From assembly GCA_043805415.1 (NCBI GenBank), contig JAZDHZ010000034.1, forward strand, positions 101,478 through 165,477: 64,000 nt of DNA, written 5' to 3'. Origin of the DNA: Candidatus Omnitrophota bacterium (GTDB taxonomy: Bacteria > Omnitrophota > Gorgyraeia > B26-G9). The position numbers and the translations under genes are program-made. The notes beneath the pieces are model-generated. The model was not told where the DNA came from and did no database searches. It worked only from the letters and a program-made list of their open reading frames with translations. This document shows positions 3,057-55,489 of this stretch, one piece after another (position 1 is the first letter of the stretch; the number at the start of each line of letters is the position of its first letter).

Positions 3057-3809
3057 ATGGTTATGAAAAATATTGTTATAGGCTTTATTTTGCTGATTAG
3101 TGTGTGTGTTGGCAACTGCTTTGCCCTGGATGCTCTGTCTCCGCGTTTGAGTCTGGATAAAACTACTTTTCAGGGATACTTGCTTAAACCTCAATTGGAG
3201 CTGCTAAAAACCGCTCAGGAATTTACCGCGGAATCTCCGAGTCCGGCGGATAAACTGGGTAAAGTTATTTTTCGAGTAAATCTTAATGGAGAAAAACTAA
3301 TTGTCCGCAAGCGCGTAGAAGATTACGGCGATGAGGTGGAAGTTCATCATGCCTTGACCCGGGTAGAGGCCAAGGGCAGGGAAAAATACTTAGGACAATG
3401 CTGGTACACTATTGATGATGTTCAGGCTGTGTTGCAGGAATCCTATGATATGACTCCTGCTGTGCGGATTGAAGACAAAGACAAAGGCAAAGGATATGGC
3501 AGCGTGCTTTTTGCCGCGGTTATTGAAAACGCTGGGCAAAATGGAATTAATCGCTTTCTTATTTACCAGCCGACAACTTCTTTGTACGAAAAATTCGGAT
3601 TTGAGGAAATTGGTGATTATGGCCTGTCTTATAAAAACCTCAAGCCAGATGATCCATCCGCGTTTAGCATAGCGCGGGATTTGGCTGGGCAGCGCGGCAA
3701 ATTACTTAGTGTTGAAGGCATGTTTTTATTTGCCTTAAAAACCGCGCGGCAGCCGATAGCTAAGTTGCAGTTTGAGATAGTAAATGATGTTCTCGATGGT
3801 TCAGTCTGA
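3057..3809 (+). CDS. terminal-signature family member with GNAT acetyltransferase motif
   Basis: Leader 'MVMKNIVIGFILLISVCVGNCFA', N-box 'ALSPRLSLDKTTFQGYL', tail 'LDGSV-stop'. GNAT motif A 'KGKGYGSVLFAAVIENAGQNG...LYEKFGFEEIG'. ATG 3057 preferred over TTG 3027. Confidence 0.7.
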   Translation: MVMKNIVIGFILLISVCVGNCFALDALSPRLSLDKTTFQGYLLKPQLELLKTAQEFTAESPSPADKLGKVIFRVNLNGEKLIVRKRVEDYGDEVEVHHALTRVEAKGREKYLGQCWYTIDDVQAVLQESYDMTPAVRIEDKDKGKGYGSVLFAAVIENAGQNGINRFLIYQPTTSLYEKFGFEEIGDYGLSYKNLKPDDPSAFSIARDLAGQRGKLLSVEGMFLFALKTARQPIAKLQFEIVNDVLDGSV

Positions 3810-3959
3810 TCCACGCCTTGTGCTGGTTCAAGCAGTAAGATATAATCAAAGTTTTCCTTCCGCGATGATTTTCCAAAGCAAAACAAGCCAGTTTCCTTTT
3901 ATCGGTTTTTAAGGTAAAATAAGATTAACCAGCGGAGAAGTCGGACGGGTCAAAAAAAT

Positions 3960-4424
3960 ATGCTGATGAACCTATACATTGACGGCGATGCTTTTCCCAA
4001 TAGTCTGAAGCAAATTTTATTTCGGGCGATTGAACGCTTTGCTTTGCCGACATTTGTAATCTCAAACAAGCGGATCAATATTGGAAATTCAAAGCACATA
4101 AATTATATTATTGTTGACGCTGGACCTGATGAAGCTGACCAGCGGATTGTGGAAATGGCTGAAGAAGGGGATCTGATCATTACCGCGGATATTCCTTTAG
4201 CTGACAAAGTGATAACAAAAAAAGCTTATGCCTTAGACCACCGCGGAAAGTTTTTCAGCGAGGATAATATCAAATACTATTTATCCATGCGTAATCTGAT
4301 GCAAGAGATCCGGGATAATGGGATGATGACTAAAGGCCCGGCGGCTTTTAGCCAAAAAGACGCGCATGAATTTGCTAATCAATTGAACCAATTTTTAATA
4401 GAGCAAAAACAGCTTAGGGGATAG
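3960..4424 (+). CDS. yaiI: UPF0178/YaiI (DUF188) family protein
   Basis: 'LYIDGDAFP...IVEMAEEGDLIITADIPLA' matches the YaiI/YqxD family pattern. Confidence 0.75.
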   Translation: MLMNLYIDGDAFPNSLKQILFRAIERFALPTFVISNKRINIGNSKHINYIIVDAGPDEADQRIVEMAEEGDLIITADIPLADKVITKKAYALDHRGKFFSEDNIKYYLSMRNLMQEIRDNGMMTKGPAAFSQKDAHEFANQLNQFLIEQKQLRG

Positions 4425-4484
4425 AAGCTGGAAGAATAGAAATGTGCTAAGCATTGAATGTAATAATAATTGAAAGGGACAAAA

Positions 4485-6255: not shown

Positions 6256-9200
6256 ATGTTTTTTAGAAAAAGAAATAGTTATCGCGTTAAAATCACAACT
6301 TTTATTATTTTACAGTGTTTTATAATTATAAATAGTCAAAGTATTTTTGCCCAGGAACAGCGGATTGTTTTAAGCCGCCAGCAAACAAGTACTCTTTCTC
6401 CGCACTTAAGCATCGGAATGAACTTGATTCAAGCAATTTTTTCCGAAAAAAGTCAACAGCCGATTGCCGCATCCAATCTTCCCGGAACACTGATATCATT
6501 GCGTGATACCGGAAGTATCAAAGAATTATTAAGCGGCAAAGACGTATTTTTGAATGACCTTTGGGCTAGAAAAACCTTAGGAGTACCCACGGCAATCAGT
6601 AGCCTGCGCAGTGAAGATAATAATTTTGATTTATGGGATTGGGGAAAAGGGGACATGGGTGAATCCAGCCGCCAGCATATTTTATGGTTAGCCAAGAATG
6701 GCTTTTCCCGCTGGATGCGCTTACCTAACCGGAAAACCCGGGCTTTATTCGGAGACCCCAGCCCCTATGCTTCACGCAGCGCGTTTGCCGGGGAAGATTC
6801 GGATATTGCTGTGCCGGAAGTGGAGGAATTTATTAATTCAAAACAAGCGCAGGCTTGGTATGAGCAAAATAAAAACCGGATTAAGGATTTACATAATGCG
6901 AATAGAGTAAATGGAATGGAAGTAGCGAGATTGAAAAATGAGGCTTTGTGGCTGGCAATGGAGTATTTTAAAGAAAATCATTTAAATAAAAATACTTCGC
7001 GCGGTAAAGCTTTTGATAGTTTTTTAAATGATAAAGATAATGACTGGGTAAGTGAATACGCGGAATATATGGCCATAAGCGAATATTACTGGGATACAAA
7101 AAAAGCTGTTTTTTTTGAGATAAATGAAGATATCTGGTCAAACATCGACCAAAAATTAAAAGGCCTGGTGCATGACCTGAACGTGGCCATAAGCACTGAT
7201 AAAATTAAAGATGTCGGGCGTTTATATGAAATGATTGATGATTTTTTCGCGCAGTATTACCAGAATAGTATTGTGGCAAACGAAACCGATATCTTTAGAT
7301 TGAATATTTATCAGTCATTGCTGGACAAAATAAAACAGGGAATTTTAAAAGACCTTGTGCGGGGCAATATTAAATCGCTTGTTGAGGCAGATGAACCGGA
7401 ATGCGCGAAAATACTTTTGGATGGTTATGAGCGTTCCAAACAAGCGTTTCGCTATGATATCAAAGACGCGATTGGCCAGGAATGTATGGCTGACTGGAGA
7501 AATTGGGACAATGCCGGATTGGTGGAGCGCGATCCTATTGTTTTAGCCCAATTCCGGGAAAAACTGGAAGATAAAATATTGTTTCATAAGTACGCGCAGT
7601 TTATTTTTAATGAGCAGGAAAAAAACATGAAAGAATTTGCCAACAGCAATGGCATTGCCATAGAAGGAGATATTCCTTTTTATGTGTCAACCATAAGCTG
7701 TGAAACCTGGGTGTATAAAGATAAGATATTCCGGCTTGATCCGAAAAACCGCTATCAGCAGATGGCTGACAGCGGAGCGCCGCCAGACCAGTATGACCGC
7801 GAATACGGACAAAACTGGGGCGGGACTCCTTATTATATAAATGCGGCGTTTAAGCAATTTTTCTATAAACGCACAAAACATGAATTAAAGAACGCGGATG
7901 GTATCAGGATTGATCACTTCCGGGCGCTTAATGATTTCTGGGTAATTCCTCATGGCAAGCTTGGCCGGGACGGTAAGTTTGAAGATGGGCCAAAAGATGA
8001 ATTATTGCAGCCTTTGCTTAATCTGGCATTGGGACAGTTTAAACGTTTTTTTGCCGAAGATCTGGGCTCATATCTGGAAGGAGTCTGGGATCTGATGCGG
8101 GATAATGAAGTTAAGGGCTTTCGGGTAGCGATATTCGGCCATGGTGATGATGATGACATAGTTCATCGGCAATATTCCGGGCAGATTGCTTTTTCCGGCA
8201 CGCATGATACTCAGACCTGGTTTGGCGCTTGGAATCAATGGGATAGTGTTAAACGGAGAATATTCCTGGACAGGTTTACGCATGATGATATTCCGGAGAT
8301 TTGGCAGCGCTTAACATCTGAACAGAGAAAAGGGTTTTTAAAATACCTTAATTATTTAGTAAAGCAGTTAAAAGCAGATACAGCAAACATAAACAAACAT
8401 AGCGAGTTTCAATCTGAAAGCAAAGATTTTTTCACAGAGAATAATTTTAAAACGCAGTTGAAAAAAGTCCGCGTTATTACAAGGAGTTTGGTTGATCTTG
8501 AAGAATTGCCATTTGGCGTGCAAACCGCTGTTTTCGGAATCCTGGCTTTTTCCGAAGCAGATACAGTATTTCTGCCGATGCAGGATATATTCCGGCAGGG
8601 TGAAGAGTTTCGGATAAATGTTCCGGGCAGGCCCGGAGATTGGGGCTACCGCCATCCTTATACCGGACAGGAATTGAATAAAGCAATAAATGAAGAAATA
8701 AAAAAAGCTGATGAATTAATGCGGCTGCTGGCGCAAACTTCCGGCCGGGATGTTAGCGTGCCTTTGTACAAAAAAGGCCAAGGCGTGCATATTCTGGGTG
8801 TTTCTCCGGGTGTTAATGCCAAGAAGATGTGCAAACCAGGCGAGGAGTTTATTATCTGGGCGGCAGTACAGGGTGATAAACCAGCTAAGGTTAATCTGCT
8901 GACAAATATGCCTGAGCATAATGGCGCGTATCCTAAAGAACAGGCAGTGGCCATGGAATTAGTAAAAGAATTAAAGAGCGGAACCTATCTTTATGGAGTA
9001 AGAATAAGAGCAACACAGCCAGGCAAATGGGGAGTCGCGGTTGAGGCGGATAATGTAAGAGCCGGAGAGGTTAAGGAGAATACCAGTCTGGTTGTAAGCG
9101 CTTTGGATAAAATAGCGCCTTTGGCTAAAGAACAAGAAGCTGTGCTGCGGATCGCGGCCGGGATTTCCAAGGAAAAACTGCAAAGGATTTTAAATGAGTT

Positions 9201-11184
9201 GAATCCTGATTTGGCGCAGGCCCTGCGGCAGGCATTAAAAAATTATCAGGTAGAATATGCCGGTAATGATGAGGAAAAAATCATTAATCCCAGCGGACTG
9301 GATAAAGATTTATTATATGCGAATGTGAATTTAATCCGCGAAAAATTACTTAACCTTGATTACCAACAGTTAATCAAGGAAAATTATCCTGCTTTGAATA
9401 ATAAACTTATTGCTGAGTATATGAACAGGTCGGGATGGTATTCCGCGGCAGTGCCAAATAAAATAGCGCAGACTTTGCTTAATATCGCGGTTTTACCTGG
9501 AAATCCAGAGTCTGTTATGGAAAGTCTTACCACTATTCTTGGCCACGACAACACTATTAGCGGGGAAAAGCGGGTATTATTAGATCAGGCGTTTGCCAAT
9601 GCCGCCGCGATTGCTCATGACTCGGTATTTAGAAAAGGAGATTTGTTTGTCTTAAACAAGTTTAATGATCCTGAAGCTAATCAGAAGGTGCTGTCTTTTG
9701 CCCGGTATATGGGAAATGGCAGAAAGGCGATGGTAATCAGTAATTTCAATGACTCGCGCATTAACGGAACCCTTTTGCTCAATCAGCATAATTTTGACAA
9801 AATATTTAATATCTCCAGCACTCCAGGCAGTTATTATGCTTTGATTGACAGGGTAAGCGGAGAAATATACCTGCGTGAAGGAAAAGATTTGATCGCGCAT
9901 GGTTTGTATTTTGATCTTCCGGCTCAGTCCACGCATGTTTTTATGGTTCAGAGTTTACAGGATAATACAGCCAATGTTTTGCGGTCTAAATGTAATTATT
10001 ATAATGGCAAATCTCTGCCGCTGGAAGAAATTCTTTCGCTATTAAATAATTTTGGGCTGACTTTGGATTTTCCCTGTGTGGGAAAAACAGCGCGGGCTTT
10101 TGTTCTCCAGGGTCTTTTAAACAATGTTCCGGCAAATCAATTGATCCAGGCTTTTAAAAACAATCCGGAAATCAAGATAATCGAATTTGGGTTAAACCCG
10201 GCGGAAATCGCCGCTGAGATTAGCAAATTAGCGCAAGAGTATCAAGCTGATAAGCAAGTTCAGGCTTTATGCCAGGGCCTGCGGTTTTTAAATCAAAGAG
10301 GAGCATTAAATGAAATAAATCTTGTCCTGGTTTTAAATCAGGACAAAACATCAGTTGAGGCTGTTCAGTATTTTGATCATGGTTCAAAAAGCAGGAAAAG
10401 TTATTTGTATGTTAATTTGTCGCGGCTGAATCTGGATTCAAATAATAATTCTGAAACTAAACTTTCCGCCGCGTTAATAATCGGCGCGCGGATATCACGC
10501 CAAGGGTCGATCGCGGATTATGAATTAAGCCGAACCCTTAAAGCATTTTTAGCGCTTTGGGCGCGAGACGACGCGACTTTGCCAGGGTTAATCGACAGTG
10601 AACACAAAAGGATAAAAGGCATGTTGGAATATCTTGAAACAAATCTTAATTCAGTAATAGATGAATGGAAGCTGCCGTTTCATTATAACCTGGGACATGA
10701 TACGCTGTTAAGCCACTCTTTAAGGCGCGTAGTCATGGATTTGTTTTTAAAACAAAATACTGATAATCAAGTCAGTTTAGCCACTGTGCATAATTTTGCT
10801 TATTTCTTGGCGTATTATTTGGCTGATTCCGGACAGGCAGATAAGCTTCGCGATATTTTGCTTCAAGGATTTTCTGGAAAAAAAGCATCTTTTTATGAAC
10901 AATATTTTCTTACCAGCTTTATCTCCGGAGCACTGGTTTTAAGGGACAGCAGCATAGACGCGATTTTTATTGATTTACTGGAAAATCCTTTGCCGCAAAC
11001 GGATCTTGCCTTGCGGGAAAAAATTATAAAAACAATGTGCGGTCTAAACCGTTTTGATTTAAAATTAAACAAAATCTCAGTCAAAGAGTTGGGGGCGGTT
11101 CTCCAATCCGGCAAAGCTATTGAATCACTTCCTGAGGCAACAGTCGCGATCAGGCAGTATCAGGCGATTGGACAGGCGATTTAA
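6256..11184 (+). CDS. giant terminal-signature family protein carrying a GH77 4-alpha-glucanotransferase (amylomaltase) domain
   Basis: Leader 'FIILQCFIIINSQSIFA', N-box 'TLSPHLSIGMNLIQAIF', tail 'GQAI-stop'. GH77 blocks 'GDIPFYVS', 'GAPPDQYDREYGQNWGGTPY', 'GIRIDHFRA', 'FAEDLG' and 'GTHDTQTW' lie at nt 7666-8220. AAAGGAG Shine-Dalgarno sequence. Confidence 0.9.
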   Translation: MFFRKRNSYRVKITTFIILQCFIIINSQSIFAQEQRIVLSRQQTSTLSPHLSIGMNLIQAIFSEKSQQPIAASNLPGTLISLRDTGSIKELLSGKDVFLNDLWARKTLGVPTAISSLRSEDNNFDLWDWGKGDMGESSRQHILWLAKNGFSRWMRLPNRKTRALFGDPSPYASRSAFAGEDSDIAVPEVEEFINSKQAQAWYEQNKNRIKDLHNANRVNGMEVARLKNEALWLAMEYFKENHLNKNTSRGKAFDSFLNDKDNDWVSEYAEYMAISEYYWDTKKAVFFEINEDIWSNIDQKLKGLVHDLNVAISTDKIKDVGRLYEMIDDFFAQYYQNSIVANETDIFRLNIYQSLLDKIKQGILKDLVRGNIKSLVEADEPECAKILLDGYERSKQAFRYDIKDAIGQECMADWRNWDNAGLVERDPIVLAQFREKLEDKILFHKYAQFIFNEQEKNMKEFANSNGIAIEGDIPFYVSTISCETWVYKDKIFRLDPKNRYQQMADSGAPPDQYDREYGQNWGGTPYYINAAFKQFFYKRTKHELKNADGIRIDHFRALNDFWVIPHGKLGRDGKFEDGPKDELLQPLLNLALGQFKRFFAEDLGSYLEGVWDLMRDNEVKGFRVAIFGHGDDDDIVHRQYSGQIAFSGTHDTQTWFGAWNQWDSVKRRIFLDRFTHDDIPEIWQRLTSEQRKGFLKYLNYLVKQLKADTANINKHSEFQSESKDFFTENNFKTQLKKVRVITRSLVDLEELPFGVQTAVFGILAFSEADTVFLPMQDIFRQGEEFRINVPGRPGDWGYRHPYTGQELNKAINEEIKKADELMRLLAQTSGRDVSVPLYKKGQGVHILGVSPGVNAKKMCKPGEEFIIWAAVQGDKPAKVNLLTNMPEHNGAYPKEQAVAMELVKELKSGTYLYGVRIRATQPGKWGVAVEADNVRAGEVKENTSLVVSALDKIAPLAKEQEAVLRIAAGISKEKLQRILNELNPDLAQALRQALKNYQVEYAGNDEEKIINPSGLDKDLLYANVNLIREKLLNLDYQQLIKENYPALNNKLIAEYMNRSGWYSAAVPNKIAQTLLNIAVLPGNPESVMESLTTILGHDNTISGEKRVLLDQAFANAAAIAHDSVFRKGDLFVLNKFNDPEANQKVLSFARYMGNGRKAMVISNFNDSRINGTLLLNQHNFDKIFNISSTPGSYYALIDRVSGEIYLREGKDLIAHGLYFDLPAQSTHVFMVQSLQDNTANVLRSKCNYYNGKSLPLEEILSLLNNFGLTLDFPCVGKTARAFVLQGLLNNVPANQLIQAFKNNPEIKIIEFGLNPAEIAAEISKLAQEYQADKQVQALCQGLRFLNQRGALNEINLVLVLNQDKTSVEAVQYFDHGSKSRKSYLYVNLSRLNLDSNNNSETKLSAALIIGARISRQGSIADYELSRTLKAFLALWARDDATLPGLIDSEHKRIKGMLEYLETNLNSVIDEWKLPFHYNLGHDTLLSHSLRRVVMDLFLKQNTDNQVSLATVHNFAYFLAYYLADSGQADKLRDILLQGFSGKKASFYEQYFLTSFISGALVLRDSSIDAIFIDLLENPLPQTDLALREKIIKTMCGLNRFDLKLNKISVKELGAVLQSGKAIESLPEATVAIRQYQAIGQAI

Positions 11185-11185: not shown

Positions 11186-14100
11186 ATGTCAGGAATTTTT
11201 AAAACTAAAATTTTAAATAGATTTCTCTGTCTGGTTATTTTGCAGATATTTCTTGTTTCCAATTTTTCCTGGGCCGCGGATGATTTGCGCGCGAATGATT
11301 TAGTTTATTCCAGCGCAACGCTTTCTCCTTCGCTTCAAATCAGCGCTGATGCGCTAAAACAATATTTTGCCCAATCCTTTGATTTAAAAACCGCGGCAAA
11401 TATAGATCCGGTTATAAAAGATATTTGCTTAGAGCTGTATAAGGCCAAGGATAAAACCACAAAAATAGAAGTTCTGGCCCTTGAGCAAGGCTATAGAGTA
11501 AAGATCAGGACTCAGAGCAATACGCCGCTTGTTTTACATTGGGGGTTTAATAATTGGCAAAAGCCTTTTAAGGAAATCTGGCCCCAGGCAGAGAATATCC
11601 GCACTTATTTTGATGAGCAGACCAAAGCAATGCGGACCATAGTCGAGGCTTCAGCTGAGGGAGATTATGTTTTTAATATTGATATCCCCTGGGAATTAGT
11701 TTCAGGAATAAACAATATTGATTTCACCTTCTTTTGCCCAGAAACCAAAGAATATAAGAAAGCAATTGAAAATAAGGATTATGTTGTGCCGGTTTCTAAT
11801 GTCTTGAACCTGGCCTTGGCGCGCTTGGCTGAAAATGCCGGGGCAGATGATCCTGAAAAAAAGCACGATCTGCTTAATTTGATAAACAAAAGGCTGGCTG
11901 CGGCCAAAGATTCAGCGGAAATAGATGAAAACAATATTCCTTTGTTTTATGACGCGCATGAAAATATTATTACCCAGATTGTGAAAAACAAAGCAGGAAT
12001 CAGAATTGATTTCTGGGTTGTAAGTAATGAGCCGCTGGTTTTACATTGGGGAATAAATGATTGGCAGTTGCCGCCAAAAAGCATTTGGCCGGACCGGACA
12101 TTATATAAAACCCGGGCTTATGAAAAAAAAGCAGTGCAAACTCAGATGCATTTGGCTTCTAAAGACGGTTTGTACCAGACCTCGATTTACATCCCTAACC
12201 AGAATTTAAAAGAAGTTAAAAACATCAAGTACAATGTACATTATCCAAATAATGGGTATTGGGATAATAATAATGAAGAGGATTATAGTTTATCGCTGCA
12301 AGCCCAGGATCTTATAGCCGCTTTGCTGCCTTACGCGACAGGCAGATTCGCTGCCCACATAAACGCCAAACAAGCTCGCGGCTTGTTAAAGAACATGGCG
12401 TTTTTCTACGCTGAGAATATGAATTACACTGATTTGTTAAAGCTTTTTCAGGGGATGGAAGGCATTGCCCCTGGGGATGATCTTGAAAAAAAAGATGTTT
12501 TGGGATTAATCCTTATTGCCAAATTAATGAACGAAGGCGCGGTTTGGGATAGTGACAAAGCTAAGATTATTATCAGTAAACAAAAGATCAGCGCCGCGAT
12601 AGCGGAGTTGATTGATAAACTTGACCCCTTAAGTGTGCAGTGGGCATTATATATATTCGGACTGCTTGACCCTTCCTGGGTCTCAATCCTTACGCATCAG
12701 CTTGATTATAAGCAGATATACCAGGATGTGCAAAACAGCAAGATCAAAGACCTGCCGAAATTTATCCAAGGGATAATCAACAGTTATGATGATTTGGAAG
12801 GAGCGCCGCAGGTTCTTTCCGCTGAGAGTATTGATGAAACCTGCCTGATCATAAAATTGAAATTCAATGATCAGATCATCAGTACAAAATGGGGCTATCC
12901 GACAAAACAGCAAAAGTATTATTATCAAAATGGGATTTTTGAACTAAGAGATTTCGGGGGAAATGAATTTTCGCCGGTAGGCCGTAAGCTTTCGCGTTAT
13001 GTGGATAAAGAAGTGATAAAAACCCAGATCTCCAGGCTGCGTGGCAAAGGCAAAAAGGCGATTGTTGACGGAATTTCCTGGCAGTCTCCGGAAGCGCTTA
13101 ATTCGGATAATTATATGTATTATCATCATAGTCTGCTGGAAAAAGACGCGGATGTCAGGAATTTATTGCTTTCCCGTGGTTCTTCCACGATCTTAGAACT
13201 TCCGGACGGGAAAAAAGCCTGGGTATTTCATCGGCCTGATTCATCAGATCAGCTTTCGCCTAATCTTAAATTCGGAACAAAGGCAGCGGAATACTGGAGA
13301 AATTATTGGCTGGAGTATTATAAATATTTTATCAATGAATTTGACGTGGATGGATTCAGGGTGGATTTACCCGGAGAGTTGAATCATCATGGAGATTATT
13401 CGGTATTTAAGAGTGTTTGTTTTGATATAGTGCGGTACGCGGCGGCAAAAGGCAAAAAAATATATTTTATTTTAGAAACATATCATGGGTACGCGAATAT
13501 CTGGGGCTGGGATGAGTTTTCCGCGTTAAATCATGATCCGCAGATAGCGCAATACGGCTATAAACCTTTCCGCTGTTATTATAAGCCGGTAATGACCAGT
13601 ATTTACCGCGGCAGCGCGTTTGATCTAAGAGCTGCTTTTGAACGCATAGCCGGCAGTGTTCAGGAATTGGTTATTTCAATTACTAATTTTGACGAGAAAA
13701 AAGCCGAGGATATTATTCCTGAAAAACAAAGGCTTAAGCGTTATATGGAGCTTTTGTATAATTTTGCCCGCGCGGGATTTGATGTAATGATTTATTTACG
13801 GGATTTAGGTCTGGGCGATATTTTGCCGATGTGCGGCGGAGATCGGGTTCTCTGGGGCGGAAAGCTGAGGGTTGTGGCGCATAAGCCGGCTACTCCGCGT
13901 CAGTTTCGGCAGAGATTGGAGCAAAGCACAGGCGATTTGCTTGAACAATCTCCTTTATATCAGGCGTTTAAAAAATCGCCGCAAAGCCCCTTATCGCGGC
14001 TGTTCTTCCGCGGCAATAAGTTAGTTTTTTATCAGCCGGGAAAAACTCCGGAAGTGTTTGATCTGGATAAGATGGCTAAGCCTGCTCCACCGGTAAAAGT

Positions 14101-15142
14101 TATGGACAGTGAGGAGGATATAAATATTTGGCTGCAGCAGCAGGTTTATTCATTAACAAATAATGAGCCGCAAACCCAAGCCTTAAGAGAAATTGAAAAT
14201 ACTTTAAAACGATTTAAGCATAGTGCAAGTGCAATGGCGGGAAAAGCTGTTTTGGCTCTGGTCTGTTCTGAGACTAAGAATTTCGCGGTTTGGGATCAGG
14301 CAAAAGGCCAAACTCAATGCCTGCGCATGCCGGTAAATAAAGTATTGGCCATAAAAAATGACCATGCTTTTGTTGTGGATATTAAACAAGCTGGCAAAAG
14401 CGAATCCCGCAGAATCCCGGCGCTGCAAATCAAGCAAAGCGGCAAATATTTGGCAATGGTTTTTGGCTTGGCTCCGGGTAAATACAGGTTTAATTTTTTG
14501 TGGCAGGAAAAACATGAAAACCAGGGCTGGGAAGAAGGCAATGGCTATGAGCTTGAAGTCAGTTCTCCGAAGACCGGGCAACCAGAGCTGGCGGTCTATA
14601 TCCCGCGTTTATCCGCTGAATATTTAAGGGATTGGGATGAAATGTTTTATCAGGCAAAAGATGCTGGCCGCAATCTGCTGACCGGAGATATGCTTACAAA
14701 GGGAATGCTTGAAAATATAGAATCCTCGATTGATTTTACCCTGCGTTATGAGTATGGCCGGGAGATTTTAGAACAAATTAAAGACAAAAAGAAAAAGCAG
14801 GTTTTCAATATTTTATATAATCAAATTTCGCAAAACCCGCGAGGCCGATACAGTTTACTGCATCATCACCATGAAAAAGATTTTTTTAAATTAGCGGAAA
14901 CTGTGCTTGAGAGTATCCCGGGTTTAGCAAGACCAGAGGCAGCCCCAATATGGCAATATTTGGACGCGCTCAAACAAGCGGATAATCCTGACCAAGGAGA
15001 ACAAAGCCAAATAGCCGTAAATATAAAACTGCTTGGTTTTATGTCTGGTTTGTTCGCGCAGATCGAAGCCCTGTCCGCGGCTAAACCCCTTGAGCTTTGG
15101 CTTAATATTGAAGCGGAGTTTTTGATTGGACAGGCAATATAG
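11186..15142 (+). CDS. terminal-signature family protein with GH13-like alpha-amylase-family core and two starch-binding-like modules
   Basis: The ATG lies 1 nt after the upstream TAA. Leader 'FLCLVILQIFLVSNFSWA', N-box 'TLSPSLQISADALKQYF', tail 'GQAI-stop'. 'VDGFRVDLPGEL', 'YFILETYHG' and 'ITNFDE' resemble GH13 regions II-IV. Tandem 'PLVLHWG.N.WQ.P' modules. Confidence 0.85.
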   Translation: MSGIFKTKILNRFLCLVILQIFLVSNFSWAADDLRANDLVYSSATLSPSLQISADALKQYFAQSFDLKTAANIDPVIKDICLELYKAKDKTTKIEVLALEQGYRVKIRTQSNTPLVLHWGFNNWQKPFKEIWPQAENIRTYFDEQTKAMRTIVEASAEGDYVFNIDIPWELVSGINNIDFTFFCPETKEYKKAIENKDYVVPVSNVLNLALARLAENAGADDPEKKHDLLNLINKRLAAAKDSAEIDENNIPLFYDAHENIITQIVKNKAGIRIDFWVVSNEPLVLHWGINDWQLPPKSIWPDRTLYKTRAYEKKAVQTQMHLASKDGLYQTSIYIPNQNLKEVKNIKYNVHYPNNGYWDNNNEEDYSLSLQAQDLIAALLPYATGRFAAHINAKQARGLLKNMAFFYAENMNYTDLLKLFQGMEGIAPGDDLEKKDVLGLILIAKLMNEGAVWDSDKAKIIISKQKISAAIAELIDKLDPLSVQWALYIFGLLDPSWVSILTHQLDYKQIYQDVQNSKIKDLPKFIQGIINSYDDLEGAPQVLSAESIDETCLIIKLKFNDQIISTKWGYPTKQQKYYYQNGIFELRDFGGNEFSPVGRKLSRYVDKEVIKTQISRLRGKGKKAIVDGISWQSPEALNSDNYMYYHHSLLEKDADVRNLLLSRGSSTILELPDGKKAWVFHRPDSSDQLSPNLKFGTKAAEYWRNYWLEYYKYFINEFDVDGFRVDLPGELNHHGDYSVFKSVCFDIVRYAAAKGKKIYFILETYHGYANIWGWDEFSALNHDPQIAQYGYKPFRCYYKPVMTSIYRGSAFDLRAAFERIAGSVQELVISITNFDEKKAEDIIPEKQRLKRYMELLYNFARAGFDVMIYLRDLGLGDILPMCGGDRVLWGGKLRVVAHKPATPRQFRQRLEQSTGDLLEQSPLYQAFKKSPQSPLSRLFFRGNKLVFYQPGKTPEVFDLDKMAKPAPPVKVMDSEEDINIWLQQQVYSLTNNEPQTQALREIENTLKRFKHSASAMAGKAVLALVCSETKNFAVWDQAKGQTQCLRMPVNKVLAIKNDHAFVVDIKQAGKSESRRIPALQIKQSGKYLAMVFGLAPGKYRFNFLWQEKHENQGWEEGNGYELEVSSPKTGQPELAVYIPRLSAEYLRDWDEMFYQAKDAGRNLLTGDMLTKGMLENIESSIDFTLRYEYGREILEQIKDKKKKQVFNILYNQISQNPRGRYSLLHHHHEKDFFKLAETVLESIPGLARPEAAPIWQYLDALKQADNPDQGEQSQIAVNIKLLGFMSGLFAQIEALSAAKPLELWLNIEAEFLIGQAI
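11460..12295 (+). repeat. two tandem ~110-aa starch-binding-like modules (intragenic duplication)
   Basis: 'NTPLVLHWGFNNWQKPFKEIWP' (about nt 11520) and 'NEPLVLHWGINDWQLPPKSIWP' (about nt 12029), each followed by 'A(M/V)(R/Q)T...' and a Y/W-rich beta region. Confidence 0.6.
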
Positions 15143-41722: not shown

Positions 41723-43429
41723 TTGATTTTGAACTTAAAATTTCTTAAATGCGCAATGATTTTATTTATGGTTTTTCTCCTGAATACAAAAAATTGCTTT
41801 GCTGATTTGCTTTCTGAATCTTTTCTTAGCCCGGTATCAAATATTGATCTGGGATCATTGCAAAAAACATTTACCTATTTAGTAAATGAGCAAACTTATT
41901 CAGAATATAAAGCAATCTTTGAAATCAATGATCAGGATAAACCGCGGCGCGATCTTAAAGCGCGGGATTTAGAAGATTTTTTACAAGTCATAACCGATAT
42001 TCGCTTGATCCTGGAAATGTTTTCCCAGGGAAATGCGTTTAAAGGAATTATGAACCAGGCAGATAAAGAAACAATAGATGATTTCCTGAGCAATCATCCG
42101 GATGAGATTGAGCTGCTGAAAGATTCAGGAATTAAACCTGTTCTTAGCGCTATCCTTGAGCGCGCTTTGGCGCAGCTGGCTGCAAGGCAAAGAGCGGTCC
42201 CGTCTTTGGCTGAAACCATGTATAAGGAATTAATTTTTAGATTAAAAACAAAGCTGGAAACAGCCGCGGGAATGCTTAAGACAGGCATGCCGATTAAATC
42301 AATCAATTTTAATCAGGAAATACTTTCCTATCTAAAACCAGAAACCCTTAACCGGATAATCGAAAACATTAACTGGCAAAATCAAGACCCTGATGATTAT
42401 AGCGGGCAAAGAAAGATTATTTTAAACCTGGATAAACCAATTGTTTTGGAAAACGGTAAAATAATCAACTCAATTGAAATCAAAGGAGTTGTTTACCGAA
42501 AAGATGAGGTTGCGGTTACTCCTTTACAGGAGAGGTTTAACACAATAAAAGTTCCAAGATTAGACAAAAACAATCTAACTGCTTTGAAAAAAAGAGTACA
42601 TTTAAAAGGCGGAATGCCTTTTGCCGCGGCTAAAAGAGAATATATGATTTTAGAAAAACTTTACGCGCAAGGTAATTACCAGTATGATTATCCCATCGGA
42701 TACGGCAGGTATAAGAATTATACGTTCCAGGGCAAACAATTTGGATTTATCATCACAGGTGTGGAAAATTCAAGGCGAACAAGAATGGGCGACTGGTTTT
42801 TTGATAACTATCAGGAGATTTTTGATTTACTCACGATTGATAAAGTCAGATTCGCTAATTTAGCAGTAGAACTCTTTGAGGTTCATGAAACTTTTCTCAG
42901 GCATTATGGCCGGGAGTTGCGGAGGTTTCATGACAGCGGATTTTATCATGGTTATCCGCATACTTTAAATGTAAGCTGGGATAAAGAATTTAAAAATATC
43001 GTGCTTAATGATTTTGAAGCCAGCAAGCTGATTTCCCATTTGCCTGTTGAAAAAAGAGTTGGCTACCGATTGATAGATCTAAGCTCGGCTTATGCCCATT
43101 TTATTTACTTTCTTACCAATGATCGGGATTTAATGGAACTAGCGGCGTTTTCCGAAGGCATGAATCATCTGAATAATCCTTTTCGCTATTTTCTTCAGGG
43201 GTATTTTGGCAATGATTTGCCAAATTTTAATTTTGATGGTTTTATGAGTGAAGCTATTTATCCGGCGGTTGTGTCCGGGGTAGATGTGATTAATGACCTG
43301 GATCAGGATATTGTGAGTAAACTTTTGAATATTGAAGGCGCGGATTATAAGCGAGTTAAGTATATTGATCAAATTGTTTTTGATGCGCAGGGCTTTGTAA
43401 ATGAACTTGCCTGTCAAGAAGCGATCTAG
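41723..43429 (+). CDS. terminal-signature family protein with atypical protein-kinase-like (Kdo/WaaP-like) motif
   Basis: Leader 'FLKCAMILFMVFLLNTKNCFA', N-box 'FLSPVSNIDLGSLQKTF', tail 'QEAI-stop'. 'FHDSGFYHGYPHTLNV...VLNDFEAS' resembles the HGD.H..N / DF(G) kinase core. The start is TTG 41723 or 41729, after a GAGGAG Shine-Dalgarno sequence. Confidence 0.75.
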   Translation: MILNLKFLKCAMILFMVFLLNTKNCFADLLSESFLSPVSNIDLGSLQKTFTYLVNEQTYSEYKAIFEINDQDKPRRDLKARDLEDFLQVITDIRLILEMFSQGNAFKGIMNQADKETIDDFLSNHPDEIELLKDSGIKPVLSAILERALAQLAARQRAVPSLAETMYKELIFRLKTKLETAAGMLKTGMPIKSINFNQEILSYLKPETLNRIIENINWQNQDPDDYSGQRKIILNLDKPIVLENGKIINSIEIKGVVYRKDEVAVTPLQERFNTIKVPRLDKNNLTALKKRVHLKGGMPFAAAKREYMILEKLYAQGNYQYDYPIGYGRYKNYTFQGKQFGFIITGVENSRRTRMGDWFFDNYQEIFDLLTIDKVRFANLAVELFEVHETFLRHYGRELRRFHDSGFYHGYPHTLNVSWDKEFKNIVLNDFEASKLISHLPVEKRVGYRLIDLSSAYAHFIYFLTNDRDLMELAAFSEGMNHLNNPFRYFLQGYFGNDLPNFNFDGFMSEAIYPAVVSGVDVINDLDQDIVSKLLNIEGADYKRVKYIDQIVFDAQGFVNELACQEAI

Positions 43430-48504: not shown

Positions 48505-48525
48505 ACCGATTATGCTTTTTAAACT

Positions 48526-48800: not shown

Positions 48801-48814
48801 ATATGATGTTAACG

Positions 48815-48990: not shown

Positions 48991-51357
48991 ATGAGAAAGT
49001 TTAAAAATATTTTCATAAAGGTACTTATAGCAGCGTTTCTGTTGCAGACGCCATCTGCTTTTGCGTTGAAAAGTGCCCAAGACAGTGTATGTGCCAACGC
49101 GGGTACAGTTTTTCTGGCGCCTTATCTGACCATTGATGCCACATCAATTCAAACGAGTGCCTCCAAACTATATGATTTTTCCCAACAGGCTGCTTTACAA
49201 CCTGTTCTCGAAACTCTTACAGATAATTTCGGATGGCCGGAAGAGATTGCTGTTTCTGTTAGCCAGCGAGTGGCGTTTACACTCAGTCAAACAGAGACAT
49301 CAGTAGATTATCGGCCGGATATTGCCATTATTGCTACCGCGACTACGTCAGATCAACAGTATATCCGTTATGTTTTTCCGTTAAACCAGGAAAATTCTAT
49401 TAGCGTGGTTGATCAAGACATGAGGATAATCCGTTTTGTCTGGAATGGAAACGAGTTATCAATCGCGGAAATTGGAACAGGGGATCGAGGAACTGTGCGC
49501 TATGCGGATCAACAGATGCTTTTATCGCTTAAGGATCACATTAAAGATAGAATGGAAGAACTGCTTAAAAGAGATTCTGTAACATTAGAAGACTTGCAAG
49601 AATTATTGTGGATGGACCCCCTAACTTTTTTAAAAGACCAAGACTATGAGCCGCGACCCTTAGAAAACGACGAAATATTTTTTCTCATGAAGCGTTTAAA
49701 CGATTTATTCTTTGAATTGAAGGTTGATGATCCATGGGTTCTTCCCAAGATTAACGATCCTAATGCTTTGGCGGCAGATGATCCGTATCACCTGTTAACC
49801 TCCAGACGACGTGTCCAGATTGATGAGCGTGTTGTTGATCATGGAATTTTGTTTGAAGCAATGAAGTTAGAAGCTGATGAGTTTGCTCTGTTTCTCGCTC
49901 GGGATGCGATGAGCGCGCATGAATTTATCACCCATCTGCAAACCTTACAAGGCAACTCACAAGCCCTGTCAGGATTAGTTTATCAGCCAGGGCTTCGCAG
50001 CGCGTTTCAAACTGATTTTGACAAGAAACATAAGCGGACAGCATATGTGGATGAGGAAAGTTTAGAACATACCATGAGAAGAATAACCCAGGCTTTTCAG
50101 GGCACTTTGCAAAAATTGGGAAAGCCTGTTCAGAGAATAACCCGAGGCGAGGCTGATAATAAAGAATTTAACGCTGATGAATACAATGAGTTTTATTCGC
50201 TTTTTAAGCAGAAAATAATCGAGCTGATTAATTCCGAAGAGCATGTTCGCAAAGAATCGGAACTTATATTGAACCAGATAAAAAGAGCGATTCATGGAGA
50301 TTTTAAGAAGATCCGGGTTATTGATTTGGATGCGACAGGGAAAACAGCGCTTTATGTAAGAGCGGTTATTGAGTATTATGCTGAGAAGGGAGAGCTTGAT
50401 GTGGAGAGCGCTGAAGTATTTATCGGCAACGGACGTGGAAGCTCGGTAAATGTTCCCAAGGTGCGTCAAGGCGCGACAGACCCTCAGGTGAGTTTTGTTG
50501 ATTTGAACTGGCCATTTATTGCTGAGCAAAGAGATGCTGCTACGGGAATGGTTAACTTTAGAGTTACTAAGTCTCGCTATCGCTTCCTTGAGCTTACGTA
50601 TCAGAGTTTGCGTTTGTACAATGAAGCAATCAGTTTTTTTGAAAACGGGCAGAAAGGCTCAGTGTCCAGGCTTTCAAAGAAAGAGAATGCGAAGGCGTCC
50701 AAAGCTAAACCAAATAATATACTGGATATGACAAAGTATGAATTTTTAAACCAGTATCAGAGAAACGGGTTTTTCCGTCCAGGGTTTTATGGAAGCAAAC
50801 GATTGGCAATTGAAGCGCGGCTCAATGAGTGGTTTGGAAAAGGTAATTGGCAGGAGCGTTATGCGATCAATGGGAATCTTAGTACTAAGGATGAGATGCT
50901 TGTGTTTTATGAAGATGCCTATGTCGCGTATTTACGGGATAATAGTCCTCTAGCCACTTGGTTGGAAGAAACAGCAATCGACGTATTTGATAATAGTACA
51001 TCTAATCTGGATAGCAGGATGGATTATTCCATTCAGGAAACGACAAGCAACCATTACCAGGATATTGCTATACGCAGAGCATTTGATCGTTTAGGCAAAA
51101 GTTTTGGAGGTTCTGAACTGATTCAAGTTCGCGGAAAGGATTCGAAAGGGGCTAAATTAAGTCCAGGGGTGGTACCTTTTAATAAGCCGTATCTGCTTTT
51201 CAATCCTCCGCTCAAAGGTTGGTGGAACAAAGGTTCTATCGAAGAATTTTTGCAAAGCTCAAAAGTTATTGTTATCCTGCCGGCTACCTTTAATATTGAA
51301 ATAAAAAGTGCTGTTCAATACAGCAGAGAGCAGTTTGTTATCGAGCATTCGATATAA
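48991..51357 (+). CDS. terminal-signature family protein, function unknown
   Basis: Leader 'IFIKVLIAAFLLQTPSAFA', N-box 'FLAPYLTIDATSIQ', tail 'EHSI-stop'. Confidence 0.8.
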   Translation: MRKFKNIFIKVLIAAFLLQTPSAFALKSAQDSVCANAGTVFLAPYLTIDATSIQTSASKLYDFSQQAALQPVLETLTDNFGWPEEIAVSVSQRVAFTLSQTETSVDYRPDIAIIATATTSDQQYIRYVFPLNQENSISVVDQDMRIIRFVWNGNELSIAEIGTGDRGTVRYADQQMLLSLKDHIKDRMEELLKRDSVTLEDLQELLWMDPLTFLKDQDYEPRPLENDEIFFLMKRLNDLFFELKVDDPWVLPKINDPNALAADDPYHLLTSRRRVQIDERVVDHGILFEAMKLEADEFALFLARDAMSAHEFITHLQTLQGNSQALSGLVYQPGLRSAFQTDFDKKHKRTAYVDEESLEHTMRRITQAFQGTLQKLGKPVQRITRGEADNKEFNADEYNEFYSLFKQKIIELINSEEHVRKESELILNQIKRAIHGDFKKIRVIDLDATGKTALYVRAVIEYYAEKGELDVESAEVFIGNGRGSSVNVPKVRQGATDPQVSFVDLNWPFIAEQRDAATGMVNFRVTKSRYRFLELTYQSLRLYNEAISFFENGQKGSVSRLSKKENAKASKAKPNNILDMTKYEFLNQYQRNGFFRPGFYGSKRLAIEARLNEWFGKGNWQERYAINGNLSTKDEMLVFYEDAYVAYLRDNSPLATWLEETAIDVFDNSTSNLDSRMDYSIQETTSNHYQDIAIRRAFDRLGKSFGGSELIQVRGKDSKGAKLSPGVVPFNKPYLLFNPPLKGWWNKGSIEEFLQSSKVIVILPATFNIEIKSAVQYSREQFVIEHSI

Positions 51358-52823: not shown

Positions 52824-52913
52824 TCAAATCCTCTTGCCTGGATATACGGGGGCACAATTGAAAATGCATGGATGCAATCCTTAATTATCCAATCATGTTT
52901 TTTTAACAAACTA

Positions 52914-52951
52914 AAACCTCTGTTCTGAGAATTTATCAGGGCAGGGGTTTT
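52914..52951 (+). terminator. conserved terminator-like repeat, copy 3
   Basis: AAACCUCUGUUCUGA-GAAUUUA-UCAGGGCAGGGGUUUU. Confidence 0.7.
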
Positions 52952-53146
52952 CTGGTTTTAGGCTTCAGAAAGTTAATTAGCCGGATTATTTGCTTTTTTA
53001 GCTGAATTCAGGTATATTTTTGGTAGTTTTTGTTAGGCTGATTTTGCTGTTTATCGTTAATTTTCAAATGGTTGCGTTCCTGGCAGCTGTTTATACGCTA
53101 ATTTTCAGACATATCCGCCTTATTCATAATTAAGAAAGCAAAAAAA

Positions 53147-55489
53147 ATGATTTATCAAATAAGAAAATTTATTTTATTGCTCCGATTTATATGCCTAATC
53201 CTGGGACAGTTATTGCTGATTAATGGCTTTGCCTGGGCAGGGCAGATGAATACTTTGTCTCCGGTAGCAGTTGTAAGCAATGCTAATTTTAAAAAAGCTT
53301 TTGATGATAATTTAGACGAGATATACGCGCTTAATAATAAAATTAAAAGCATCAAACAGGTTTATAGCATGATCACGGAATTAGATGCTTATCCGGGTTT
53401 TACCCGAATGCTTGATTCAGATGATGGATACAGAGATATCGGCATTTTTCTGGTTTCTGATCTTGATGAGGTAAATAAAATTATAAACATATTGCCAGTA
53501 GATAAACATTCTGAGGTTTGTGAGCTGGGCAGCGGCATTGGTAATGTCAGTGCTTTATTTGCCGCCAGAGGGGCAAATGTAATTGGTTATGAAATTGACC
53601 AAAAGCTGGTATGGTTAAGTAATAATATAGCGCAAATTGATTTAAAAGATATTCTTGCTCCGGAAAGAATAAAGTTTGAGCGCGCGAATTTTTTAAGCAA
53701 GGATCTTTCTAAATTTGACATTATATTCTATTACTGGAACAGCATGGTTTCTGAATATAAAGATGAGCTGCAGAATAAAATTTTAAAAGAACTTAAGCCC
53801 GGTGCTTTATTGGTATTGTTCGGGGTGAGCAAGGATAAAGCATATTTCTCGGGATTAAAAGAGATGACTGGCTTACCGGGCTATGAATCAATAAGCGCGT
53901 ATGCCAAGGTATATGCGCAGCCGGATAAACCTATTGCCCAAACCAATGAACAATCAAAGCTGCAATCATTTCGCGATGATTTAGATTCGCCGGATACAGA
54001 GGCGCGTTTGCAGGCAGCGCTTGCTTTAGCGCAAAGCAAGCATGCTGATGATAAAGCATACGCGATTATTAAGGAATCAGCAATTAATAAAAACTTAACG
54101 CTGAATGAAAGAATAAGAGCGGCGAGATTCTTAAGCGATTCAGACCGGATGGAATATGCCGGGCAGCTTATAAGCGATGAACAACAGTTTGCCAGAATAG
54201 AACGCGACGATAAAAAAGACTTTGACAGTTTGGAGCTATCAGCGGCAAGTCTAGAGCAAGTTCAAGGGCAAATAAAAATGATATCAGGCATAGATAAGCA
54301 AGTTGCTGATGAACTTATGCTCAAGGCGGGTAAACTTGCTTTTTTAAGTGAGGAGCTTTCCCGGCTTAGTAACGCGATAAGATATTTTGAGGGAAATTGG
54401 CATGCGCTTTTAGAGGAAAAACTGGATAGCGAATATGGCTATGCCAAAGAAGTAAATGAGGCAATGATCGCGGACGATATGCTAGGGGTTGAGCTTTTTA
54501 ATGCCGTAGATTATGTAAAAGCTTATTTGGTTTGCCAAAAGTTAATATCCCGGCTTAGAGATAAAGGGATAATAGTTATGGGCGGAGATAGAGAATGGTT
54601 TTTGCTTGAGGCTTTTCAGTATATTTTTAAGAGAAATTATACAATGGAACAAGCAGAAAAGATGCTGGAAAATAAATGGGAAGTATCAACAGCGGCAATA
54701 AGAGCAAAAGAAATATTTAAAGATTTAATAACAATTGGCCTTAGCCCGAGTGGGTTTATGTCAGAAGTGAAAATAGGATTTTTCGCTAATACGGCGCAGC
54801 AGTTCATCTATCGGGGTTATGACGACGCGAATCATCTTGAATACGCGCCCGGCCCGAATTATGATGCCAGAAATATTTCCATTGGAGTGGAGAACAATAT
54901 TGGTTCAGTAAATGCCATGCACATTAATCTTGGGGTGCCCTGGGCCTCAAAATATATCTGGGCATCATATTTGGCATTGCATAATTTTATTGATTCAAAT
55001 ACTATGGCCAAAGGTTATTATGATTATTTTTATGATCAGCAAATCAAAGACAGCAGTCAATTATTCCCCGGCCAGCGCAGGGTTTCTTATATCGGGGTTT
55101 GGACCGAAGACCTTGATGATCTGGATTCAATAATCGAGACTTTTGTGCCCTTGAGCATTGGTTTAAATAATTATATGTCAAAAGAAAATCCGGAAATAGC
55201 GGAAATCTGGAAAACTTTTAGAATCGAATTTGAAGAGATTATAAATTCGCAAAATGATCAACAGTTAAAAACGGAATTTTTTGAACAAGCCAGGATGGTA
55301 AGATTCGTGGAATTGATATCGGAAAAAAATCGCGGCAATATTTTTTACCAGCAAGTTGAAAATCTTATTCAAAAAACAATCAAACAAATTAATCATAATC
55401 TCGCGAATCAAAACAAGAATCAGGCTTTAATCAAACATTCCCCGGAATTTCTTCAATTTCCAGAAACCGCGGTACTTAATTCAATTTAG
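53147..55489 (+). CDS. terminal-signature family protein with SAM-dependent methyltransferase domain
   Basis: Leader 'FILLLRFICLILGQLLLINGFAWA', N-box 'TLSPVAVVSNANFKKAF', tail 'LNSI-stop'. Motif I 'VCELGSGIGNVSALFAARGANVIGYEID' at nt 53518-53600. Confidence 0.8.
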   Translation: MIYQIRKFILLLRFICLILGQLLLINGFAWAGQMNTLSPVAVVSNANFKKAFDDNLDEIYALNNKIKSIKQVYSMITELDAYPGFTRMLDSDDGYRDIGIFLVSDLDEVNKIINILPVDKHSEVCELGSGIGNVSALFAARGANVIGYEIDQKLVWLSNNIAQIDLKDILAPERIKFERANFLSKDLSKFDIIFYYWNSMVSEYKDELQNKILKELKPGALLVLFGVSKDKAYFSGLKEMTGLPGYESISAYAKVYAQPDKPIAQTNEQSKLQSFRDDLDSPDTEARLQAALALAQSKHADDKAYAIIKESAINKNLTLNERIRAARFLSDSDRMEYAGQLISDEQQFARIERDDKKDFDSLELSAASLEQVQGQIKMISGIDKQVADELMLKAGKLAFLSEELSRLSNAIRYFEGNWHALLEEKLDSEYGYAKEVNEAMIADDMLGVELFNAVDYVKAYLVCQKLISRLRDKGIIVMGGDREWFLLEAFQYIFKRNYTMEQAEKMLENKWEVSTAAIRAKEIFKDLITIGLSPSGFMSEVKIGFFANTAQQFIYRGYDDANHLEYAPGPNYDARNISIGVENNIGSVNAMHINLGVPWASKYIWASYLALHNFIDSNTMAKGYYDYFYDQQIKDSSQLFPGQRRVSYIGVWTEDLDDLDSIIETFVPLSIGLNNYMSKENPEIAEIWKTFRIEFEEIINSQNDQQLKTEFFEQARMVRFVELISEKNRGNIFYQQVENLIQKTIKQINHNLANQNKNQALIKHSPEFLQFPETAVLNSI

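Follow-up and report, generated by a model that had tools for sequence, protein, structure and literature searches.

A three-part terminal signature on unrelated, fast-evolving Omnitrophota proteins and its possible role as a post-Sec address label

We describe a three-part terminal signature shared by nine otherwise unrelated proteins that are encoded in a 64,000-nucleotide (nt) stretch of a Candidatus Omnitrophota genome (GenBank assembly GCA_043805415.1, contig JAZDHZ010000034.1, positions 101,478 to 165,477; hereafter the window), and recognizable by sequence profile in more than 100 further protein clusters. The signature consists of a Sec-type leader, a box of 17 residues that follows it (the N-box) and a hexapeptide at the free carboxyl end (the tail). 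Judging from sequence comparison, it is under purifying selection on proteins that evolve fast, are unrelated to each other and often bear enzymes. The nine open reading frames (ORFs) belong to a large Omnitrophota-specific family that is defined by a terminal label rather than by a shared domain, and this label may direct its carriers to a dedicated step that follows export through Sec.

Introduction

The Omnitrophota are a widespread, uncultivated phylum of ultra-small bacteria that are suspected predators or parasites. Predatory or parasitic lifestyles have been proposed for them (PMC10066038; 10.1101/2023.11.21.568195), and studies of the phylum report type II/Tad-like secretion loci as well as giant proteins, the majority of the latter with signal peptides or transmembrane segments (PMC10066038; 10.1101/2023.11.21.568195; 10.64898/2026.06.07.730766). 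An earlier note on the window, prepared from its letters alone, drew attention to nine ORFs of unrelated content that share a leader and a box at their N-terminus and a short motif at their C-terminus. In this work we analyze these nine ORFs, hereafter the members, together with their orthologues, their genomic context and the wider family.

Anatomy and specificity of the signature

The window has about 39% G+C and carries nearly all of its genes on the forward strand, with the nine member genes adding up to 29,067 nt, or 45% of its length. Translation confirmed that leader, N-box and tail are present in all nine ORFs, including the one that initiates with TTG at position 41723; the leaders and boxes listed in the earlier note were correct in content, but their order did not follow that of the ORF list. 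Each member runs from a basic N-terminus through a hydrophobic stretch and a small-x-small site to a box of the form xL[SA]PxxxΦ....Φ[QK]xx[FY], and stops directly after [AS][IV]. Conservation across the family is limited to the first ~60 and the last 6 residues.

The leader follows the consensus KKNKIIFKIIALVLIQAFLLLDFAWAGG, with the core ..LIQAFL..D.AWA after a K/R-rich start. It comprises a K/R-rich n-region with a median net charge of +3 (minimum +1), an h-region of ~13 residues (..IIALVLIQAFLLL..) and a c-region D-[FI]-A-W-A/C; the uncharged core measures 13 residues and the first small-x-small site (AWA, AWC or xFA) lies near residue 27. A mid-helix Gln (..[LIVM][LIVM]Q.., as in ..LIQAFL..) is found in 105 of 119 family members. 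By simple heuristic measures (charged n-region, h-region of ~10-15 residues, small residues at -3 and -1), the leader is predicted to have the geometry of a Sec signal for signal peptidase I (SPase I), as the earlier note had held.

The N-box spans 17 residues, [SD]TL[SA]PxΦx[IL][ND]xxxΦ[QK]xx[FY], with family frequencies [SD]-T(64%)-L(93%)-[S55/A36]-P(96%)-x-[LIV]-x-[IL]-[ND]-x3-[FLIV]-[Q50/K21]-x2-[F72/Y13]. It starts 6-26 residues (median 16) past the predicted cleavage site, and no conservation is seen beyond its position +16. The tail had been described as a tripeptide fixed at the extreme C-terminus. Its placement stands, but its extent does not, since information content does not exceed background between -30 and -7 and increases only over the last six positions, delimiting a hexapeptide with L at -6, I/V at -5, E/G at -4, Q at -3, A/S at -2 and I at -1 (in general form ΦΦxx[AS][IV]). 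The terminal residue is Ile in 82 of 87 proteins and Val in the remaining 5, and terminal Leu is rare; within the family proteins, only a single tail-like hexapeptide is located internally. Given that the conservation of N-box and tail is short and sharply bounded, both are short linear motifs and not domains.

Within the window the two marks are specific to the nine members. Among the 113 stop-to-stop ORFs of at least 80 amino acids (aa) in six frames, the box expression matches the nine only, and [AS][IV] terminates ten, the tenth being a 111-aa antisense ORF within the GH116 (glycoside hydrolase) gene. When ORFs of at least 100 aa are tabulated, 9 carry both marks, 0 the N-terminus only, 1 the tail only and 54 neither (Fisher p = 3.6e-10). 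Ordinary signal peptides or lipoboxes without either mark are present in the GH26 protein, the DUF4139 protein, the tetratricopeptide repeat (TPR)-peptidase, the product of the gene at 27275, the lipoprotein at 47937, the glycoside hydrolase at 51738 and AmiC, and the three-part signature is distinct from this ordinary secretome of the same genome, whose classical extracytoplasmic representatives in the window are GH26, a GH-clan enzyme, the AmiC amidase and two lipoproteins. Member stop codons vary (TGA, TAA and TAG), as does the flanking DNA on both the upstream and the downstream side, so conservation resides at the protein level; the same variation rules out a terminator, a ribosome-binding site or a recombination site as the origin of the tail. 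All-against-all BLASTP of the nine proteins confines their similarity to residues 1-72, with no cargo similarity at E < 0.01. The specificity, the protein-level conservation and the unrelated cargo that the earlier note had asserted are thus all borne out.

Orthologues and the wider family

Orthologues retain leader, box and tail at identities of 37-63%, so that both termini are conserved between genomes, a point on which the earlier proposal depended. The member at 29258 has a single clear homologue among 5.8 billion clustered sequences, P0002 (37% identity), with the leader ..AILIQVLLFSN.., the box HLSPKVAF....F..NF and the tail LLGQSI. The acetyltransferase (GNAT) member at 3057 has two: P0006 (45% identity), with the box TLSPRLNLDRTAFQTYL (TLSPRLNL..) and the C-terminus ..PDQSI, and P0005 (63% identity), with the C-terminus ..IDASI. 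As the tails of orthologues differ (DGSV, DASI and DQSI; GQSI), individual residues drift while the pattern is kept.

The coupling of the two ends extends to other genomes. Six loci of other Omnitrophota metagenome-assembled genomes (MAGs) were retrieved through the conserved neighbor at 27275-28969. A local hidden Markov model (HMM) of the nine N-termini separated true matches (>11 bits) from noise (<7 bits), and 8 of 8 complete held-out matches end in [AS]I. With a refined HMM applied to stop-to-stop ORFs of at least 100 aa in other Omnitrophota loci (~170 kb), 26 ORFs have both marks, 1 the N-terminus only, 5 the tail only and 148 neither (p = 2.8e-25), which places the tail in 26 of 27 N-profile ORFs versus 5 of the 153 others. 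The lone N-terminus-only case is a 9-bit false match on a DUF4139 protein. Four of the tail-only ORFs are short and probably spurious (three antisense, one on the + strand of locus L011), and the fifth is a divergent member of 756 aa in L006 that ends in ..LLEQAI. Over the window and the other loci combined, the tail tracks the N-box as had been claimed, being present in 35 of 36 ORFs with the N-terminal signature versus 6 of 208 without it.

The decisive search used a 65-column profile built from the nine N-termini only (alignment A2), which was compared exhaustively with 1.84 billion representative proteins. It returned 122 matches at E <= 1e-3, nearly all of which align to target residues 1-65. 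Subtracting 5 window proteins and 3 internal-repeat artefacts leaves 114 independent matches. An [AS][IV] end is present in 82 of these, and in 80 of the 93 that are at least 300 aa long (binomial p ~1e-97 for the tail frequency against a 3% background); the 32 tail-less matches, with a median length of 220 aa, are probably truncated. A first N-terminal alignment (A1) had yielded no matches in a word-indexed search, the index being too insensitive for a 60-residue motif, and a metagenome scan with a 9-sequence leader alignment yielded 5 loci. The sole named cluster member and every titled assembly are Omnitrophota/Omnitrophica; one MAG is labelled Planctomycetia.

Cargo of the labelled proteins

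Family proteins range in size from 139 to ~3000 aa. Their Pfam and NCBIfam cargo matches include GH77 MalQ, glucan-water-dikinase N-domain, PEP-utilizers_C, Glycos_transf_1, TreT_GT1, PGI, CBM48, cNMP-binding plus GGDEF, HTH/sigma-70 region 4, HEAT, GNAT, ELFV dehydrogenase (Glu-dehydrogenase-type), ATP-grasp, several S-adenosylmethionine (SAM) methyltransferases and LOG/lysine-decarboxylase-like domains; 14 of 20 sampled profile matches have no Pfam domain. On these predictions the cargo is often, and in large part, of cytoplasmic-enzyme type. This property and the fact that the leader is itself part of the signature were both missed by the earlier note.

The window members (Table 1) illustrate this diversity. 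The MalQ cargo of member 2 retains the catalytic Asp/Glu/Asp triad, and residues 75-258 of member 5 form a module that is present as three repeats in P0003. Member 6 has several internal hydrophobic segments, and partial orthologues of it are found in L001, L003 and L006. An AlphaFold2 model of member 1 built from 3 sequences is of low confidence (pLDDT 59, with both termini <50) and too poor for contacts or fold.

Table 1. Coordinates of the nine members, their N-boxes and tails, and the conserved neighbor gene within the window
Feature	Coordinates	Strand	Length (aa)	Cargo and remarks	N-box (positions)	Tail (positions)
Member 1	3057..3809	+	250	GNAT acetyltransferase; leader and linker 3057-3131; stop TGA	ALSPRLSLDKTTFQGYL (3132-3182)	VLDGSV (3789-3806)
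Member 2	6256..11184	+	1642	GH77 4-alpha-glucanotransferase (MalQ)	TLSPHLSIGMNLIQAIF (6391-6441)	AIGQAI (11164-11181)
Member 3	11186..15142	+	1318	Glucan-water-dikinase-type Ig N-domain; begins 1 nt past the stop of member 2	TLSPSLQISADALKQYF (11318-11368)	LIGQAI (15122-15139)
Member 4	26245..27012	+	255	Without Pfam domain	CLSPFLRIINSDFQSRF (26359-26409)	LIDASI (26992-27009)
Member 5	29258..32560	+	1100	Hypothetical protein, NCBI V1747_07845	TISPAIQVTEASIQTLF (29411-29461)	LVGQSI (32540-32557)
Member 6	32603..41542	+	2979	UPF0489/arginase-like, P-loop kinase, cNMP-binding and GGDEF-like domains	TLAPKISLNTQEVWDAY (32741-32791)	LLEQAI (41522-41539)
Member 7	41723..43429	+	568	TTG start; without Pfam domain	FLSPVSNIDLGSLQKTF (41822-41872)	ACQEAI (43409-43426)
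Member 8	48991..51357	+	788	Without Pfam domain	FLAPYLTIDATSIQTSA (49111-49161)	VIEHSI (51337-51354)
Member 9	53147..55489	+	780	SAM-methyltransferase-like	TLSPVAVVSNANFKKAF (53252-53302)	AVLNSI (55469-55486)
Conserved non-member	27275..28969	+	564	Mostly helical; leader but no tail		

Genomic context and turnover

Members form tight co-directional arrays with spacers of 1-40 nt. Tandem arrays of 4-6 members are present in L011, L012, L013, L017 and L020, and at least 16 members lie in three short stretches of assembly GCA_004196255.1. They also diverge far faster than neighboring genes. In MAG JAHITY the neighbors (DUF188, DUF4139, SMC, GGDEF, TPR-peptidase and 27275) are 61-88% identical to those of the window, the GNAT member is only 45% identical, members 2 and 3 are absent, and no orthologues of the members downstream of 27275 are detectable. 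When L008 (10960-12709) is compared with window positions 6256-15142, the giant members 2 and 3 are absent, while gene order is otherwise conserved (GNAT member ... DUF4139, SMC); small genes of 181 and 123 aa take their place, and an adjoining 246-aa gene is the orthologue of the membrane protein gene at 15161-15937 of the window. The members thus act like variable insertions within a conserved gene backbone. Reshuffling extends to cargo modules, as a 651-aa member of L013 aligns to part of the 2979-aa member 6.

The conserved gene at 27275 belongs to a family (65-85% identity; L001-L007 and L020) that lies directly upstream of the hypervariable member array in all related genomes that were examined. 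In P0003, its domain (IQDxHCNY ... ITGGFHT) is combined in one protein with the three repeats of the member 5 module, and the family is a possible accessory or machinery component. Assignment to the Tiki/TraB-like proteases on the basis of the IQDxHCN and TGGFHT motifs was dropped, there being no Pfam support even at E <= 10, and an AlphaFold2 model built from 2 sequences (pLDDT 50) is too poor for fold inference. The TPR-metallopeptidase gene at 23061-24440, also conserved, is a machinery candidate only.

Several neighboring features are recorded here in their own right. The SMC protein encoded at 17669-21625 (+) has a glycogen-binding insert (AMPK1_CBM/CBM48) at residues 667-744, beside the hinge, which is also present in its L008 orthologue; family cargos include alpha-glucan-related domains too (MalQ, the dikinase N-domain, CBM48 and TreT). 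The GAF+GGDEF gene at 21658-22851 (-) is split into two ORFs (22381-22851 and 21658-22350) and its L008 orthologue is a single gene of 394-405 aa, the split being a frameshift, a pseudogene or an assembly error. At 5456-5926 (+) the transpeptidase domain of a penicillin-binding protein is only partly encoded (156 aa, covering profile positions 106-296 of 299); the gene is probably truncated or a pseudogene. A transfer-messenger RNA (tmRNA) gene at 46820-47252 (+; Rfam 176 bits) adjoins smpB. According to ARAGORN its tag is unusually long, ALLERIGSGIAHPTFTGFVPAAVLL, ending in ..PAAVLL; being unlike the tail, it rules out the tail as a tmRNA-tag mimic. The intergenic regions 47253-47936 (684 bp) and 48471-48990 (520 bp) lack both ORFs of 150 aa or more and Rfam matches at the gathering threshold.

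Discussion

The reading that we favor, to which we assign slightly less than an even chance, is that the signature is an address label for a dedicated post-Sec step, either surface display or secretion and delivery, with the hexapeptide and the N-box as its recognition elements. Under this reading the leader would carry the protein over the inner membrane via Sec, and a dedicated receptor or translocon would then read the exposed N-box and the free C-terminal hexapeptide. Full-length proteins would thereby be committed to a route different from that of the genome's ordinary periplasmic and secreted hydrolases, leading to display on the cell surface or to secretion and delivery toward a prey or host cell. 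With one motif at either terminus, the pathway could restrict admission to complete polypeptides, whatever their size or fold. A more specific version, in which the label marks the substrates of an unrecognized Omnitrophota export and delivery pathway that checks both ends of the polypeptide and takes cytoplasmic-type enzymes of nearly any size to the cell surface or into prey, is tentative and on balance doubtful. As a set, the cargo is reminiscent of an effector or 'surface multienzyme' repertoire, with which the rapid divergence of members, their gain and loss between genomes and their tandem arrangement would also agree.

Several observations weigh against the address-label reading. Many cargo domains require ATP, GTP, SAM, acetyl-CoA or NAD(P), which are absent outside a cytoplasm; by inference, such cofactor needs would favor delivery into another cell. 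A crude hydropathy scan places extra hydrophobic segments past the N-box in 56% of the family, although in none of 7 of the 9 window members, and the segment counts, noisy as they are, show no bias to even numbers. The tail may accordingly be cytoplasmic in many members, which fits a single periplasmic reader poorly. A sub-family of 29 of 119 members, comprising among others member 6 (at about residues 95-125), P0010, P0012, P0014, P0023, P0042, P0052, P0056 and L001 3098-4462, has a second signal-peptide-like segment, ..[RK]N.V....LF....PFASPAL.., 30-60 residues past the N-box and often followed by QAPPA. This segment may form a hairpin that returns the cargo to the cytoplasm, or a second processing site. 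The family could not be connected with any receptor, peptidase, secretin or PDZ/TPR partner, and no recurrent machinery gene lies beside the arrays in the loci examined, except for the 27275 family. The strong conservation of the leader, finally, may mean no more than that a mobile N-terminal module was inherited from a common ancestor. The interpretation in the earlier note survives in part: a genuine, selected protein-level signature on unrelated cargo is upheld, and the role in export, anchoring or processing and the PDZ-type reader that it envisaged stay proposals, with no PDZ protein or other receptor found in the ~280 kb examined.

Three other explanations were weighed. The first is head-to-tail docking, in which array-encoded proteins, each exported separately, attach to one another, hexapeptide to N-box, either directly or via a scaffold, and form non-covalent multi-enzyme chains or a surface matrix that would be the split-gene counterpart of the giant multi-domain proteins of the phylum. 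It would account for the restriction of conserved elements to the outermost termini of the mature protein and for the tight co-directional arrays, and it is in line with cargo modules that are fused in one genome and separate members elsewhere, as with the 651-aa L013 member, and with a domain palette that overlaps that of Omnitrophota giant proteins (10.1101/2023.11.21.568195). However, the motifs are nearly uniform and so offer no pair-specific code, two short linear motifs rarely make a stable complex in the absence of a folded receptor domain, and a search for relic tail-leader junctions inside long members found none. We consider docking unlikely.

Quite unlikely, in our assessment, is a membrane tether combined with tail-dependent proteolysis, whereby an uncleaved or slowly cleaved leader anchors the protein in the inner membrane and the hexapeptide acts as a degron or activation signal. 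Its reader would be a periplasmic PDZ-type protease (Prc/Ctp/DegP) or cytoplasmic ClpXP or FtsH, controlling turnover or clearing export failures. Known carboxyl-end degrons include ssrA (..LAA) and MuA (..KKAI), which the non-polar -A-I end resembles; many members have additional membrane segments, and the conserved TPR-metallopeptidase encoded nearby is periplasmic. A degron nevertheless leaves the equally conserved N-box and leader sequence unexplained, the predicted tmRNA tag of the organism differs from the tail, and a leader whose h-region spans ~13 residues and precedes a small-x-small site has the look of a cleavable signal more than of a stable anchor. Very unlikely is shared ancestry alone, with the first 60 and last six residues as relics of one ancestral gene kept through duplication and cargo swapping and serving only a generic signal-peptide role: BLAST similarity restricted to the N-terminal ~70 residues and the array clustering expected of tandem duplication would agree with it, but box and tail stay fixed with sharp boundaries in >100 clusters despite unrecognizable cargo and in orthologues of 37-45% identity, which requires strong purifying selection on those residues, and the tail keeps its place at the very carboxyl terminus, with a single internal look-alike.

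If the address-label reading is correct, the exported or effector proteome of Omnitrophota could be listed from genomes alone, and the label would provide a handle for locating the machinery. It would also sharpen a puzzle already raised by the giant proteins of this phylum, namely why enzymes of cytoplasmic type stand behind signal peptides.

Comparison with known systems

The signature appears to be undescribed. No Pfam or NCBIfam model matches the N-terminal module or the tail in searches with whole proteins, the N-terminal consensus has no NCBIfam match at E <= 10, and the N-terminal module matches among PDB sequences only a designed protein, spuriously. Neither the motif strings nor sorting signals of Omnitrophota gave anything relevant in full-text literature searches, and the motifs are not mentioned in three papers on the phylum (PMC10066038; 10.1101/2023.11.21.568195; 10.64898/2026.06.07.730766). 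The earlier note could not match the two ends to PEP-CTERM, LPXTG, type IX secretion system (T9SS) C-terminal domain (CTD), GlyGly-CTERM or outer-membrane protein (OMP) signals, and examination of the defining features of these signals leads to the same result. Across 87 proteins, the PEP motif occurs in none and a hydrophobic 17-mer in the last 45 aa in 2, both borderline; the LPXTG motif is found in none, and the C-terminal helix of LPXTG and GlyGly-CTERM proteins is lacking, with GG in the last 45 aa of only 6; and the final residue is never aromatic, unlike that of an OMP beta-signal, in which a Phe or Trp usually ends an amphipathic beta-strand. Information content at background from -30 to -7 and the lack of any Pfam or NCBIfam CTD match speak against a T9SS CTD. 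Among 119 family members the lipobox [LVI][ASTVI][GAS]C is found in 3, the frequent ..AWC.. carrying Trp at -1, and Tat, type IV prepilin and YSIRK patterns in 0 each.

Among signals at the leader end, YSIRK-G/S, the extended signal peptide region (ESPR) of autotransporters, Tat SRRxFLK and prepilin leaders likewise mark, through a motif in or near the leader, a subset of exported proteins for special handling. The Omnitrophota motif differs in being ..LIQAFL..D.AWA and in being coupled to a C-terminal tag. Dot/Icm type IVB effectors are comparable in their cargo, forming a large and fast-evolving set of cytoplasmic-type enzymes (acetyl-, methyl-, glycosyl- and nucleotidyl-transferases, kinases) that are recognized via their C-terminus, but their signals are degenerate, extend over 20-35 residues and come without Sec leaders, and the present family has no linked type IV system.

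Tag systems of the sortase/exosortase type (LPXTG, PEP-CTERM, GlyGly-CTERM/rhombosortase and PGF-CTERM) also combine a signal peptide with a short C-terminal tag on unrelated cargo, and are lineage-specific with many paralogous carriers per genome. Their tags, however, join a motif to a transmembrane helix and a basic cluster and are removed by cleavage, whereas the Omnitrophota tail is made up of the last six residues with a free carboxylate and is accompanied by the N-box and a conserved leader. The T9SS CTD is similar in that very heterogeneous cargo combines a Sec leader with a C-terminal signal, which in T9SS governs a second step, across the outer membrane or onto it; the CTD is, in contrast, a folded Ig-like domain of 70-100 residues found in another phylum, whereas conservation here covers six residues and no CTD model matches.

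A further parallel is provided by free-carboxyl peptides, namely peroxisomal targeting signal 1 (PTS1; -SKL, read by the TPR domain of Pex5), KDEL and PDZ ligands (OMP -YxF with DegS, substrates of Prc/Tsp, and the GspC PDZ of type II secretion), which comprise 3-6 residues at the extreme C-terminus, sit on unrelated enzymes and have a hydrophobic last residue. The tail L-[IV]-[EG]-Q-[AS]-I fits none of the described classes, its Gln at -2 relative to the final residue making it neither a class I nor a class II PDZ ligand, and PTS1 and KDEL are eukaryotic and have no N-box. The logic of a free-carboxyl signal is so far best known from these eukaryotic peptides and from PDZ ligands; were the sorting label to prove real, the free-carboxyl hexapeptide and the box that follows the leader would together constitute a new class of bacterial sorting signal.

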